A DNA stretch of 64,000 nt from Shigella phage vB_SdyM_006, in the sequence record MK295204, one strand, 5' to 3'. Position 1 is the stretch's first letter; every line of letters starts with the position of its first letter. Shown in pieces: positions 53,259 through 59,663 of this stretch. Made by a program: the position numbers and the translations under genes. The notes under the pieces are model-generated. The model worked only from the letters and a program-made list of their open reading frames with translations, made no database searches and was not told the origin of the DNA.

Positions 53259-54991
53259 TACAAGTAATTAATATTGGTAATACTGTCGATGACGGGACTG
53301 GCGACTATTTACGTAAAGGTGGCCAAAAAACAAACGCAAACTTTAAAGAAATATATCATGAATTAGGCGATGATAAAATCCTACATTCTGCCGGAGCATG
53401 GAAAACATTTACTGCCAAATCTGGTGCTTTAACACCGTCTTTTGGACAATCTTTGGCTCTAAATACATTAGAAGGCCCAATAAACATAACTTTACCTAAA
53501 GGAACTGCATCTGATTATAATAAAGTTATTAGAATTAGAGATGTGTGGAATTCTTGGGAAAAGTCTCCTGTTAACGTGATTGCATCTAAAGGCGATACAA
53601 TAAAAGGTTCTTCGGGTTCTAAGAAATTTGACAAGAACTTAATGGACTTAGAATTAGTATATTGTGCTCCTGGGCGTTGGGAATATGTAGAAAATAAACG
53701 TGTTGATAGATTAACAAATCCTAATATGTCAACTGTTATTAAAAGAAGTATTATTGCTAAGCAAGGTCAAAAAGATTTTTTAGATATTTTCAATGGCAAT
53801 TTATATAATACACGTAATTTTGATGTTTATCGTCGTGGTAACATTTTGTACTATGGTGATAATTCATTTGATAAAGCAAATGCTGATTACGGATCTCCAG
53901 ACGGAGCTTCTAATATTAAAGCACTTGATGGCAAAAATGTTAGATTAAAAGATGCGTGTGAAGCAGGTGACGTAATTACTTTTATTTCGTTTTTAGACGG
54001 AATTGATTCCTGGAAAAGTTCTTATAATAGAAAAATTGTGGCTTTAGTTGATAAGGCTTTAAGTTCAGAAAAAACAATCCCAGGTCGATTAATATCGGTC
54101 GATTTTACAAAATGGCCACTTGAGATATCAATGAATGATTTTGGGTTCTTTGACGGTGAATCTGCGAATCCATATGCATTAGAAGTTCTTGTGAATGGTG
54201 TTCAGTATACTCAATTAAACGATGCAAACACTGCGACAATGACCGGTGATTATGAATTTAAAATGGTTAACGGTAAAATAGAATCTATTGTCTTCCATAC
54301 AAGATTGGCTCATAATGATAATATTGTTCTACGCTGGTTCAATAATGACATAGGAACAACTCTTCCTATTGAAGAAATAACAGCTATAACAGACCAAATG
54401 TACGTTGCTTCAGAAACTGTAAGGGTTTCAAATAGAATAGCGTATACTGATACTGATAATCCTTCTCAGAAAACTAAAATTTCTATTGATGACGATGGCG
54501 ATTATAAAGTAAATAATGTGTCTAAAATGTTTGACTTATTTTATCCTATTGGGACAATTTATGAAAATGCTCATAATGCAGCGAATCCGGCTACATATAT
54601 GGGTATAGGAACATGGGTAAGATATGCAGAAGGTATGACAACGGTTGGTTGGAACTCTGATTCAAATGATAAAAATTTCCATTATAATAATTCGGATTTA
54701 AATGCCCAAGGTATTCCATCTAAAACAGCTGGTGGTAAAGTTGGTAAAGCATTTATTGCTTTAGAAAAAGCAAATCTTCCTGGAACCGAAACTAATGAAG
54801 AAGTTCTTATTAAAGACAAGAATGGGACTATTATTATTGGTGGGTGTCAATTTGACCCTGATGATGAAGGTCCTGGATATGATAAGTATAGAGAAGATAA
54901 AGCAACAATTGGGGTTAAATCAGATTATGGACGAGAATTTAGTTTAATTCAACCGTCTATTACTACGTATAAATGGATAAGGGTAGCATAA
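53255..54991 (+). CDS. 10: Baseplate wedge protein gp10
   Basis: 578 aa (T4 gp10 is 602 aa); synteny. Confidence 0.8.
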   Translation: MIQVINIGNTVDDGTGDYLRKGGQKTNANFKEIYHELGDDKILHSAGAWKTFTAKSGALTPSFGQSLALNTLEGPINITLPKGTASDYNKVIRIRDVWNSWEKSPVNVIASKGDTIKGSSGSKKFDKNLMDLELVYCAPGRWEYVENKRVDRLTNPNMSTVIKRSIIAKQGQKDFLDIFNGNLYNTRNFDVYRRGNILYYGDNSFDKANADYGSPDGASNIKALDGKNVRLKDACEAGDVITFISFLDGIDSWKSSYNRKIVALVDKALSSEKTIPGRLISVDFTKWPLEISMNDFGFFDGESANPYALEVLVNGVQYTQLNDANTATMTGDYEFKMVNGKIESIVFHTRLAHNDNIVLRWFNNDIGTTLPIEEITAITDQMYVASETVRVSNRIAYTDTDNPSQKTKISIDDDGDYKVNNVSKMFDLFYPIGTIYENAHNAANPATYMGIGTWVRYAEGMTTVGWNSDSNDKNFHYNNSDLNAQGIPSKTAGGKVGKAFIALEKANLPGTETNEEVLIKDKNGTIIIGGCQFDPDDEGPGYDKYREDKATIGVKSDYGREFSLIQPSITTYKWIRVA

Positions 54992-55611
54992 TGAAGAACA
55001 ATAACGTATCACATTCGTCTCCTAATTCTAGTGAAATATATTATGAAGTTCATAATGATACATTAGCAGGTAATAGGGTTCCACTAGGAACCCAAGATAC
55101 AAGACAGTCAAGTTTAAACACATACCAACCTAATGTGCAGGCTGCTATAGACGATCTTAAGGGATCGTTTTTACCTTTAAACACATTAATCTATAACTCT
55201 GATGGAGAAAACCCACAGGGAGCTTCTCAAGTGGATTTTATAGATTTTAGTGGGACCGTTGAAGGAACTGGACCTACTATTGTCCAAGTTTTTGGCCTGC
55301 CCGTAACAGTTAATGGTGGTGATACCGCATCTGAAGTTACAGCAGCGTTCGAAAAACTTGCACAAGACTTGGTTTCTAAAAATCAGTATTTTTCTTTTGT
55401 ACAAAAAGAAACTGAGACTAGACTGACAATCAAATATATCGATTATAGAGACCATGATGCTATAAATATGTATAGTAATGGTATTAATGTATCAACAGAA
55501 CTTCAATCTCCAGCTAAATATGGATATGGGACTTGGGTTAAATTAGGTGTTAAAAATGAAACCTTAGGAGATACAGAATTACCAGTCCATATATTCAAAA
55601 GGATAGCATGA
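54973..55611 (+). CDS. 11: Baseplate wedge protein gp11 (short-tail-fibre attachment)
   Basis: 212 aa; VFGLPV ... GYGTW motifs shared with T4 gp11; an alternative start at 54991 overlaps the gp10 stop. Confidence 0.85.
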   Translation: MDKGSIMKNNNVSHSSPNSSEIYYEVHNDTLAGNRVPLGTQDTRQSSLNTYQPNVQAAIDDLKGSFLPLNTLIYNSDGENPQGASQVDFIDFSGTVEGTGPTIVQVFGLPVTVNGGDTASEVTAAFEKLAQDLVSKNQYFSFVQKETETRLTIKYIDYRDHDAINMYSNGINVSTELQSPAKYGYGTWVKLGVKNETLGDTELPVHIFKRIA

Positions 55612-56954
55612 TGCAAAATACATATAAACATATAAGTGACAGTTCGTCTTTTGTCACTTTTAATCCAGCCAATACACAGTGGGACCAATCTATTAAAGAT
55701 GTCCAGACTGCTTTATCAAAAATTGGTTCATGGGCTATGATAGGTAAAGGATTACCTATCTCAACAGAAACATTAAACGGGATAATTAGAACTGCAACTC
55801 GTGATGAAGTTCTAAAAGGTTTAGGTTCAGGAGCGGTGACACCTAAATATTTAGAAGAACGTCTAGCTCATCCTCAAGCAACAGAATCCGTTTTAGGATT
55901 AACTAAATATGCTAATAATTCTGAAACACTAGCTGGGTCCATTAATAATAAGGCTGTTGTTCCTACTGGATTAAAACATACATTAGATTCTAGAACTTCT
56001 ACTGAAGGAAGAACTGGGTTAATTAAGATATCTTCTTTAGCCGCAGCGGCACAAGGTATTGATGACACAACGGCTATGACTCCTAAAAAAGTCAAACATG
56101 CTATAAACCAATTATCCCCGTCTTATGGTGTTGCAACAGAAAAAAATAGTGGGACCGTTAATATTGCGTCTATAGGGCAAGTTGCCCAAGGTCAAGCACA
56201 TGACGGTATTGCAGTTTCTCCTAAAGGTTTTATTTCAACTAGGGCCACAGAAACACAAGTTGGTACAACTAAAATAGCTAATGTTGCTCAAACTAAAGCC
56301 ATGACTGATGGGACTGTTGTTATTTCCCCTAAAAATTTGGCTCAACTTAAAGCATCAGATTCTGAATTTGGATTAGTTAAAACCACAACAACTATAGGCA
56401 ATTCTGGTGCCAATCTTGCACTAAGTCCTATGGCTCCAGTTGTCCCTAATACAAGAACCGTAAACAATAAGCCTTTAACAGGCAATATTGTTTTAAGCGC
56501 TGATGACGTAGGTGCATACTCTAAATCACAAGTATGGACTAAAACAGAATCCGATGCAAGGTATATGCCTAAAACAGATATTCCAAAACAGTCATTTTAT
56601 ACTTATTTTGATGCATGGGATTTAGGTGGTAAATATCCGATTGGGCGTGGCGGTTATTGGGCAGATATAGGCCAAACTAGATTACCATTTGGTGAATATA
56701 CACGACTACAATTTAATCTGACATTAAAAAATACATCAGATCTTAGACCGTTTGTGTTAAGAATATGGCAAAATGGAACATTAATAAAAGAACATTCTAG
56801 ATTTATAGGTTACCCAAACAATTATGATTTTACAGATAGATTATTAATTAATGGCAAATTTAAAGCTGGGGATATTATTAGGGCAGAAGCCACAGCCAAT
56901 GGTGGTCCTAATTACAGATATAATTTAAGTACATGGTACCTATTATTCACATAA
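55608..56954 (+). CDS. 12: Short tail fibre protein gp12 with divergent C-terminal domain
   Basis: 448 aa; N-terminus MMQNTYKHISD ... KISSL ... DDTTAMTP matches T4 gp12; C-terminal 130 aa or so do not resemble the T4 receptor-binding tip. Confidence 0.85.
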   Translation: MMQNTYKHISDSSSFVTFNPANTQWDQSIKDVQTALSKIGSWAMIGKGLPISTETLNGIIRTATRDEVLKGLGSGAVTPKYLEERLAHPQATESVLGLTKYANNSETLAGSINNKAVVPTGLKHTLDSRTSTEGRTGLIKISSLAAAAQGIDDTTAMTPKKVKHAINQLSPSYGVATEKNSGTVNIASIGQVAQGQAHDGIAVSPKGFISTRATETQVGTTKIANVAQTKAMTDGTVVISPKNLAQLKASDSEFGLVKTTTTIGNSGANLALSPMAPVVPNTRTVNNKPLTGNIVLSADDVGAYSKSQVWTKTESDARYMPKTDIPKQSFYTYFDAWDLGGKYPIGRGGYWADIGQTRLPFGEYTRLQFNLTLKNTSDLRPFVLRIWQNGTLIKEHSRFIGYPNNYDFTDRLLINGKFKAGDIIRAEATANGGPNYRYNLSTWYLLFT

Positions 56955-56963
56955 GGAAATATA

Positions 56964-58700
56964 ATGGATAAAATAGAATTACTTCCACTGCCATTTGTTG
57001 ATGGCCCAATTAAAGACCAAACACAGATAGAATGGATTTTAAATAAAAAAGAATGTTTAACCGGAGCATCTAAATACGGTAAATCGGACGGGGTCCTTAA
57101 TAGGGTCCCAGCACAATTATATGAAAATATCAAAACGCTTGAAGAAAATGACTCATTATTACATGGGCAAGTAAATGAATTGATTGATTCTGTAGATACT
57201 ATTAATGAATCATTAGAAATTGGTAACAATAAAGATTTAATAAAAACAATTATTGAAACCAAAGAACGAGCTGATATATTTGAAAGCGTTATACAAAGCA
57301 ATTCTGATGACATTTTTAGCTTAGACGAAGATATTGTAGATCTGAAGGGAGAAGTTGGTATTCATAATCCTATTGATACTGTAAAAAGAACACTTCGTGA
57401 TGACACATTATGGATTAAACGTGAAATGGGTTCTTATCCAGGCCAAGACATTAATGGACAGTCTTCTCAAGAATCTTTAGGAAGCGGTATGAAAAGACGT
57501 ATTATCGATACTGCAACACAAACAGTTGATAATACTAAAAGAATATCTGCGTTAGAAAAAACATGGAGCGATTCTGATGTTGGTAGTTTAACTATTGAAG
57601 TTGGTAAATTAAGAACTGAACTTGGTAATTCTTCTGATCAAGAATATTTGTCTGTATATAAACGACTTTCTGTTATTGAAGATAACGTAGATAAAGGTAG
57701 TGAAGTCATTAGTGATATTATGACTAAAATAGGTTCTGGTAACATTTCTGAAGCTGTTAATGAAAATAGTTCAGAAATAACTAAACTTAATGAGGAAGTT
57801 CTAGGCACGTCTGGAGTAAAAACTAGAGTATCACGTATAGAAACTAAAATTGGAAATGACACTACACCGTTTACTATTCTTTATGATATAAGTAAAAACA
57901 CAGAAGGATTAAAAGATTTAAATACGACAGTCGGTGCTGACACAAGTTCAGGTCTTCGTGGACAAGTTGCATGGATTCAAACACAAGTTGGCCTTGGAGA
58001 CGAACCACCTGCTCCAGGAACGGTTTTGTCTAAAATAGACTTGTTAACAAATAGCACTAATGAACTTAGTATAGATGTCCAAAATCTCCAATCTGAAGTA
58101 GGTAATAATAAAACTGGTATTAAGGGAACCGTTATTCAATTAGTTAAGGCTATTGAAGGAACTGATCCTGAAGGCACAACGGTTAAAGAAATAGGAATTC
58201 AAAAAGCTACTGAAGATATGTATGAAGTTTATGACAAAGGCATGCCTTTACCTCCAGAAGATGGTAAAGCTTATATATGCCGTTATAAAACTTGGTATGC
58301 TATTCCTACTTCTCTTGGTGTGTTTACAGCAAATTATAATAAAACTGTTGAAGAAGGTCTTAATGATGTTGCAATAACTGATACAGTGATAACTAAGCTA
58401 TGTGAACTCACTGATGGCAAAATCTCTATATTTGATACAGGATATTATGAGATAGATTTTGAATCACTTATCCCTAAAGAGTTTTCCGAAAGAAAAATTA
58501 AATTTAGTTTATTTAAAAATGAAGAAGCTTTTTTTGAAACAAGCGATTTAATTTCTACTAATAATTCTAATGTGTTTAAAGAATCAACTATAGTAGAAAT
58601 AGCGGAAAACGATAATATTTCTATTAAAGTAGAATCACTTGATTCAGATTTTTCTGAAATAACGTTTGGAATTAAAATACAAGTAAAACCACTTATATAA
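56964..58700 (+). CDS. wac: Fibritin (whisker antigen control, Wac) with extra C-terminal domain
   Basis: 578 aa; N-terminus LPLPFVDGP ... matches T4 fibritin; coiled-coil body; foldon-like motif PEDGKAYICRYKTWYAIP followed by about 125 extra residues. Confidence 0.85.
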   Translation: MDKIELLPLPFVDGPIKDQTQIEWILNKKECLTGASKYGKSDGVLNRVPAQLYENIKTLEENDSLLHGQVNELIDSVDTINESLEIGNNKDLIKTIIETKERADIFESVIQSNSDDIFSLDEDIVDLKGEVGIHNPIDTVKRTLRDDTLWIKREMGSYPGQDINGQSSQESLGSGMKRRIIDTATQTVDNTKRISALEKTWSDSDVGSLTIEVGKLRTELGNSSDQEYLSVYKRLSVIEDNVDKGSEVISDIMTKIGSGNISEAVNENSSEITKLNEEVLGTSGVKTRVSRIETKIGNDTTPFTILYDISKNTEGLKDLNTTVGADTSSGLRGQVAWIQTQVGLGDEPPAPGTVLSKIDLLTNSTNELSIDVQNLQSEVGNNKTGIKGTVIQLVKAIEGTDPEGTTVKEIGIQKATEDMYEVYDKGMPLPPEDGKAYICRYKTWYAIPTSLGVFTANYNKTVEEGLNDVAITDTVITKLCELTDGKISIFDTGYYEIDFESLIPKEFSERKIKFSLFKNEEAFFETSDLISTNNSNVFKESTIVEIAENDNISIKVESLDSDFSEITFGIKIQVKPLI

Positions 58701-58736: not shown

Positions 58737-59663
58737 ATGGCTGGATATAACGCATATAATCCTAAAGAATTAAAAGATGTTATCTTAAGACGTTTAGGAG
58801 CACCAATTATTAACGTAGAAGTAACAGAAGATCAAATCTATGACTGTATTCAAAGGGCTTTAGAACTATACGGAGAATACCACTTTGATGGGCTTAATAA
58901 AACATACCAAACATTTTACGTTGGAGAAGACGAAACCTATACAAAAGGAGTTTTTGATTTACACCCATCGGTTTTTGCTGTTACACAAATAGTTCGAACT
59001 AATGTTGGTTCTATAACATCAATGGATGGCAATGCAACTTATCCCTGGTTTACAGATTTTTTAATGGGTATGGCTGGCATAAATGGTGGGATGGGTTCTT
59101 CTTGTAATAAATTTTATGGTCCTAATGCCTTTGGAGCAGACCTTGGATATTTTACACAGTTAATGCAATACAGAAGTATGATGCAAGACATGTTATCTCC
59201 ACTTCCAGATTATTGGCAAAACTCTGATACAAACCAATTAAAAGTCATGGGTAATTTTAAACCAGGCGATATTATTATATGTGAAGTTTATGTTAAATCG
59301 TATATCGATGTTCCTGATAATATGGGTGCAACATCTGGGTACGCTTGGGCTGGCGGTTGTGAAGATGAAGGAAGTGCTTCGGATATATATGATAATCCAT
59401 ATAAGAAGTTGACAGGATATACTGCTGGCGACGATTCACAAGTCCATCAAGGTTCATATAACAATAGATGGGTCAAAGATTATTCGACAACATTAGTTAA
59501 AGAATTAAATGGACAAATCTTAGCTAAACATCAAGGCATGCAATTAGCTGGTGGTGTTACCGTTGATGGTATTCGTTTAATAGAAGAAGCTAGAGAAGAA
59601 AAAAGACTTCTAAGAGAAGAACTAGAATTATTAGACGGGCCAGTTGGAATACTAATAGGATAA
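58737..59663 (+). CDS. 13: Neck protein gp13
   Basis: 308 aa (T4 gp13 is 309 aa); synteny. Confidence 0.8.

Follow-up and report, generated by a model that had tools for sequence, protein, structure and literature searches.

What stands at the cell-facing end of a short tail fibre when the end known from T4 is missing? The question is raised by a 64,000-nucleotide stretch of Shigella phage vB_SdyM_006 (record MK295204; hereafter the window), in which gene 12 (55608..56954, plus strand; 448 amino acids, TAA stop) encodes the short tail fibre protein. A preliminary description had singled out 56560-56954, that is, codons 318-448 and the TAA of the open reading frame 55608-56954, as a receptor-binding tip that had been replaced relative to T4 and that should therefore recognize a different LPS or core receptor. 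Our analysis shows that the gene encodes the gp12 of a relative of Proteus phage phiP4-3 and makes it probable that this fibre ends in an exchangeable jelly-roll receptor head.

The preliminary description had taken the gene 12 product to be gp12, and sequence matches and gene order make this clear: it is the short tail fibre protein of a phiP4-3-like Bragavirus. It matches PHROG 910 (E 6e-126, residues 1-327), and phmmer against the PDB finds the gp12 of entry 9f4b (E 3e-64), which is the pre-assembled baseplate of the Klebsiella phage KP1 variant vB_Kpn_Lilla1, as well as T4 gp12 (5iv5; E 1e-45 over residues 1-274). The surrounding genes run gp9-gp10-gp11-gp12-wac-gp13-gp14, with Pfam matches for GP11, Gp10_C and Fibritin_C, so that gene 12 has gene 11 and wac as its neighbors within a structural module of T4 type, just where a T4-type gp12 is found. 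The whole region is almost identical to that of phiP4-3 (Straboviridae, Bragavirus; host Proteus penneri), whose “short tail fibers protein” is 99.3% identical to the 448-residue protein.

The likeness to T4 stops well before the end of the protein. BLASTP places residues 1-276 on residues 1-282 of T4 gp12 (527 amino acids) at 37% identity (E 8e-52) and finds no significant match past residue 276. The preliminary description had regarded the first 300 or so residues as recognizably gp12; residues 1-276 do align to T4, but the likeness ends at about residue 277 rather than at 300-320, and from there some 170 amino acids stand in place of about 245 in T4. What it had said of the remainder was borne out. 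The protein is 79 amino acids shorter than T4 gp12 (about 80 had been estimated), and the C-terminal part, which gives no BLASTP match, does not resemble the T4 tip. The H-x-H metal site of T4 gp12 (445-447), which had been noted as missing, is indeed found nowhere in the protein; there is no cysteine either, the tip has a single histidine (H396), and no histidine or cysteine is conserved among tip homologues. A Pfam scan of the gene 12 protein (E ≤ 0.1) gave no domain and hence none of the three that a control scan recovered in T4 gp12, namely the middle domain PF09089 (246-326), the Collar PF07484 (344-400) and PF14928 (433-525; E 4e-65), which is named as the receptor-binding domain. Gene position, N-terminus, shaft repeats and a presumed role in irreversible adsorption are thus common to T4 gp12 and the gene 12 protein, whereas of the two only T4 gp12 has a middle domain, a collar and an intertwined, zinc-binding head (His445, His447), the tip here being predicted to be a self-contained jelly roll. 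RB49-type gp12 (Krischvirus, 466 amino acids) likewise has a homologous shaft, but its tip bears Collar PF07484, unlike the tip described here. A tblastn alignment to it reaches residue 425; we rejected this as homology of the tips because the extension is a low-identity run into the Collar tip that is not significant alone. The “Gp12” of PDB entry 5lye was also considered as an alternative tip and discarded, as it is a fragment (amino acids 85-406) of a T-even gp12.

From its N-terminus onward, the protein can be divided into several parts, all on the plus strand. The first 50 or so amino acids (55608..55757) align from residue 1 to both T4 and KP1 gp12 and are the most conserved portion, with the lowest nonsynonymous divergence (dN) in gene 12 (0.023-0.031); by analogy with T4 gp12, this is probably the region that attaches to gp10 and gp11 of the baseplate. 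It is followed by a shaft of six quasi-repeats of 33-46 amino acids (55758..56441), each of which closes on (V/M/I/L)(T/S/V)P(K/T/M), at residues 77-80, 117-120, 157-160, 203-206, 239-242 and 272-275. An N-terminus homologous to that of T4 gp12 and the repeating shaft units are therefore both present, and the repeats also match those of the proximal long fibre protein gp34 (PDB 9x3r, 9f4a and 5nxh). A further fibre repeat precedes the tip (amino acids 279-322, 56442..56573; VPNTRTVNNKPLTGNIVLSADDVGAY...ESDARYMPK, also given as …NNKPLTGNIVLSADDVGAY…ESDARYMPK) and aligns to KP1 gp12 residues 281-318. Within it lies the junction motif ESDARYM (amino acids 314-320, 56547..56567), the left boundary of the exchangeable part, and beyond it the C-terminal tip domain (amino acids 323-448, 56574..56951), the presumed receptor-binding head. 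The pre-tip repeat is 55-71% identical to tandem repeats in the tail fibres of P2-like prophages of Providencia. These chromosomal fibres (P0023-P0050), which have a PF12571 N-terminal domain, hold two or three tandem copies about 66 amino acids apart, where gp12 has one, and the similarity ties these prophages to a lytic T4-like phage that infects the same host family. Homology to the tips of these prophage fibres was rejected, the pre-tip repeat alone being common to the two.

The tip has no sequence match in the PDB (phmmer, E ≤ 10), Pfam or PHROGs; when it was scanned by itself against Pfam at E ≤ 10, one chance match came back and neither PF00386 (C1q) nor PF00229 (TNF). Two AlphaFold2 monomer runs with different alignments (6 and 22 sequences) agreed on eight beta-strands, all of them within residues 333-447; block means of the pLDDT confidence score range from about 52 to 91 within the domain, and the model of the monomer shows the preceding 44 residues as disordered. 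The predicted fold is a jelly-roll beta-sandwich that resembles TNF/C1q heads. In a Foldseek search of the PDB with the tip model, the gp12 chains of 9f4b come out on top (E 1.4e-6), followed by TNF/C1q-like trimers: the N-terminal lectin of BC2L-C, C1QL2/3, Cbln1, RANKL, EDA, TWEAK, Chlamydia Pgp3, the CBD of the cyanophage A-1(L) short tail fibre and the lambda J tip. Lectins and carbohydrate-binding modules are many among the fold matches, the Photorhabdus TNF-like lectin being another besides BC2L-C, and a library of viral structures returns phage “C1q domain containing” proteins. TNF/C1q-like domains are obligate trimers. The tip thus shares its predicted fold with a range of TNF/C1q-like binding heads, including the BC2L-C lectin, the C1q family, PRD1 P5, the A-1(L) short-tail-fibre CBD and the TNF-like domain of Pam3 gp24, but unlike them it matches neither the C1q nor the TNF sequence profile. 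Heads of this kind likewise sit at the C-terminal end of a trimeric stalk (PMC9608196), as the tip would here. A self-cleaving C-terminal chaperone of the Peptidase_S74 type is not apparent, as Pfam gives no match and the predicted tip is all-beta rather than a helical bundle. The orthologue in Morganella phage MP1 (gp153, 49% identical) was detected in purified virions by mass spectrometry, with nine peptides from gel slice 5, and was found only in this slice, shared with proteins of 39-45 kDa (PMC5384007). There is thus no hint that the tip is cleaved off.

Direct evidence that a tip of this family can be exchanged comes from relatives. The gp12 of Morganella phage vB_Mm5 (473 amino acids) and that of P0007 (444 amino acids) have 99.4% identity in residues 1-318, as far as …ESDSRYMR, and are unrelated beyond; in the DNA, 96% identity ends with the same codon, and from the fibritin start onward the two are again alike, at 97.7% identity. 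This pair shows the tip to be a recombination cassette that is joined at a conserved D-x-R-Y motif. The gp12 proteins of about 440 amino acids of the KP1/Erwinia type and of the P0005/6 type also diverge directly past (D/E)xRY, and P0017 likewise matches only to about residue 321, with a different junction sequence. We conclude that at least four unrelated tips occur at the same joint, besides the collar types of T4 and RB49. The tip family therefore behaves as a swappable cassette with the D-x-R-Y joint as its left edge and the end of the gene as its right edge. The earlier claim that the tip is replaced relative to T4 is supported.

The family is narrowly distributed. All matches of the tip in a tblastn search of 50,697 phage records lie in T4-like phages that infect Proteus, Morganella or Providencia: at 82-98% identity in the Proteus phages phiP4-3, SJ_PmiM, Pm5461 and PM2, and at 37% identity in the Morganella and Providencia phages MP1, Rgz1 and PSTRCR_121/127. 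P0007 represents a third lineage (38% tip identity) from metagenomic contigs with T4-like synteny, and the genes beside it are 97% identical to those of vB_Mm5. A HMMER search over 1.84 billion representative proteins added nothing real; its one extra match, P0054 (2009 amino acids), was set aside as spurious, being the translation of a 62-residue tandem repeat that matches a 20-residue stretch many times. A word-indexed homologue search with the tip alone gave no match, and the full-length protein was needed as query. Across at least five lineages the tip is kept in frame. Within Bragavirus its ratio of nonsynonymous to synonymous divergence (dN/dS) is 0.06-0.20, as against 0.06-0.07 for the shaft, and a comparison of Proteus with Morganella phages gives 35% identity for the tip and 56% for the shaft. 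Given these low ratios and the difference in identity, the tip is a functional domain under purifying selection that evolves somewhat faster than the shaft. No compositional sign of a recent foreign origin was found, with a G+C content of 32.5% for the tip and 31.4% for the window.

How unusual is this architecture? For the preliminary description, a full-length alignment to a known gp12 variant with the same tip fold would have spoken against its claim, and the gp12 of 9f4b partly answers to this. The KP1/Lilla1 protein is of equal length (448 amino acids) and lies in the same place between gp11 and wac. The two shafts match at 39% identity in residues 1-322, with the ESD(A/G)RYMP joint in common, and in KP1/Lilla1 gp12 a C-terminal tip of about 130 amino acids follows that is of the same jelly-roll fold class as the one predicted here; the N-terminal 171 amino acids of the KP1/Lilla1 protein are identical in Jiaodavirus phages such as Mineola. 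The gene 12 protein accordingly has the KP1/Lilla1 layout, a shaft of about 320 amino acids ending in D-x-R-Y-M-P and a predicted jelly-roll head of about 130. The two tips do not, however, align by sequence. BLAST between them finds nothing; HHalign gives a probability of 61% with the joint included but of 1.7% without it, with a score of 17.8 compared with a maximum of 16.1 in 30 column-shuffled controls; and the conserved motifs differ, QFNL..N.SDLRP here and GGxNGHSWRFE in the KP1 type, to which the tip does not belong. Sequence homology to the 9f4b tip is thus not demonstrable by these comparisons, and the tip appears as another sequence family within the same architecture and fold class. 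A gp12 with a jelly-roll tip had already been solved and the exchange of fibre tips is routine, so the architecture as such is not unusual. What is new is modest: a narrowly distributed family of tip sequences with a predicted TNF/C1q-like fold, a defined joint for exchange and a natural example of a swap.

T4 gp12 is a trimer that is folded under the baseplate and attached by its N-terminus; a signal from the long fibres makes it extend, whereupon the C-terminal head attaches irreversibly to the cell. If the gene 12 product works in the same manner, it would form a trimer whose N-terminus docks on the gp10/gp11 periphery of the baseplate, with the six shaft repeats and the one pre-tip repeat building the fibre, and the baseplate switch would present the C-terminal domain to the cell for irreversible adsorption. 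Past the ESDARYM joint, a TNF/C1q-like jelly-roll head of about 125 amino acids would replace the middle, collar and zinc-head modules of T4. Both termini of the domain would be at its end next to the shaft; judging from the alternation of strands, the loops at about residues 337-351, 375-381 (with the invariant SDLRP), 399-407 and 430-438 (with the invariant N.G.N) may face the cell. The head would most likely bind a surface carbohydrate, probably the lipopolysaccharide (LPS) core of Proteus, through loops at its distal apex or grooves between protomers, as TNF-like lectins do. That the protein is a trimer, that its head binds a receptor and what this receptor is are all matters of inference. 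That the receptor differs from that of T4, as the preliminary description had proposed, is plausible. We favor a carbohydrate, the LPS core of Morganellaceae, because LPS core is the known or assumed anchoring site of gp12-type fibres (bioRxiv 10.64898/2026.05.12.724579) and because many of the fold relatives are lectins. More tentatively, the tip may be an uncharacterized receptor-binding family for a surface structure common to Proteus, Morganella and Providencia, such as their distinctive LPS core, in which a TNF-like scaffold carries a new carbohydrate site made up of the invariant loops QFNL...N.SDLRP and N.G.N.

The evidence just described also bears on other accounts of this C-terminus. 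That it is an artefact of a frameshift, mis-assembly or chimeric contig has already been refuted by conservation in independent genomes: the same full-length protein is present in phiP4-3, SJ_PmiM, Pm5461 and PM2, phages of Morganella and Providencia as well as metagenomic contigs have a 37-50% identical one, and purifying selection acts on it. Nothing was found in favor of an artefact. A less easily dismissed idea is that the tip was never replaced in this lineage but is a very diverged orthologue of the KP1/Erwinia-type tip, in which case the jelly-roll head would be ancestral for gp12 proteins of about 440 amino acids and the T4 collar and zinc head would be derived. The near-disappearance of the HHalign signal once the junction motif is removed, the lack of any BLAST match between the tips and their differing motifs speak against it, as does the demonstrable exchange of non-homologous tips at this junction, and we regard it as possible but doubtful.

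Two further alternatives accept the fold but give the head a different task. Since TNF/C1q-like domains are obligate trimerization modules and the neighboring fibritin also seems to end in a C1q-like domain, the jelly roll might serve mainly as a nucleus for trimerization or folding, like the foldon or TNF-like oligomerization domains, with contact to the receptor made elsewhere or by another protein. This seems improbable to us, because the corresponding domain of T4 is the receptor binder (PF14928 is so named), because the tip has diverged more quickly than the shaft when Proteus phages are compared with Morganella phages, and because its swapping between near-identical phages fits specificity rather than scaffolding. 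Alternatively, the tip may bind an outer-membrane protein, as the presence of the C-terminal domain of lambda J, which binds LamB, among the fold matches would allow. We think this unlikely in view of the LPS-core anchoring known or assumed for gp12-type fibres, T4 included (bioRxiv 10.64898/2026.05.12.724579), and of the number of lectins and carbohydrate-binding modules among the same matches. A receptor head of exchangeable type, probably for a carbohydrate, remains our preferred reading. Because the gp12 tip decides whether a T4-like phage locks onto a cell, its nature bears on host range and is of relevance for engineering phages against Proteus, a cause of catheter infections, and Morganella. 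The ESDARYM joint offers a clean module boundary that, together with the natural example of exchange, is practical for chimeric fibres, and if the tip does belong to a dedicated family for a Morganellaceae receptor, it would be usable as a Morganellaceae-specific probe or host-range module.

On the left, gene 12 adjoins gene 11 (54973..55611, plus strand; PF08677 GP11, E 2e-15), which encodes the baseplate wedge protein or tail pin that interfaces with gp12; the gene 11 stop overlaps the gene 12 start at ATGATG. Either ATG may be the start of gene 12, giving 448 amino acids, or 447 from 55611, as annotated in phiP4-3. The start of gene 11 is also ambiguous (54973-54991), since the mechanical open reading frame from 54973 has 212 amino acids and the later start annotated in phiP4-3, which abuts the gp10 stop, gives 206.

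Downstream, the fibritin gene wac (56964..58700, plus strand; PF07921 Fibritin_C, PHROG 1056) forms the right boundary of the tip cassette. Its product (578 amino acids) aligns to T4 fibritin up to the end of the latter, with the foldon, and then continues for about 127 amino acids (452-578; 58317-58697); RB49 fibritin is extended in a comparable way. In this additional domain Pfam has sub-threshold matches to C1q (E 0.033) and BclA_C (E 0.037), and the fold search with the gp12 tip model also returned the MP1 equivalent of the domain. C1q/TNF-like heads thus seem to terminate both gp12 and fibritin here; paralogy of the two domains was considered, and BLAST finds no similarity between them. 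In MP1, fibritin is annotated as two overlapping coding sequences, gp154 and gp155 (L005 3532-4887 and 4848-5273), the second of which comprises the C1q-like terminal domain only. Both align to the single 578-residue fibritin of the window, which points to a frameshift in MP1, whether real, programmed or a sequencing error.

Over 7.3 kb, the window differs from phiP4-3 at 25 positions, and 16 of these fall into three tiny clusters: seven in 18 nucleotides at 56483-56500 in the pre-tip repeat of gp12, five in 21 at 57443-57463 in wac and four in 34 at 59432-59465 in gene 13. The first cluster accounts for all seven nucleotide differences in gene 12 and changes amino acids 295, 297 and 298 of gp12. 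At several of the clustered sites the letter in the window is that of SJ_PmiM or Pm5461, and the pattern looks like either short-patch recombination or local sequencing error. Gene 10 is annotated in Pm5461 as two coding sequences (L009 649-1875 and 1992-2384), while the window, phiP4-3 and SJ_PmiM each have one intact gp10 of 578 amino acids.
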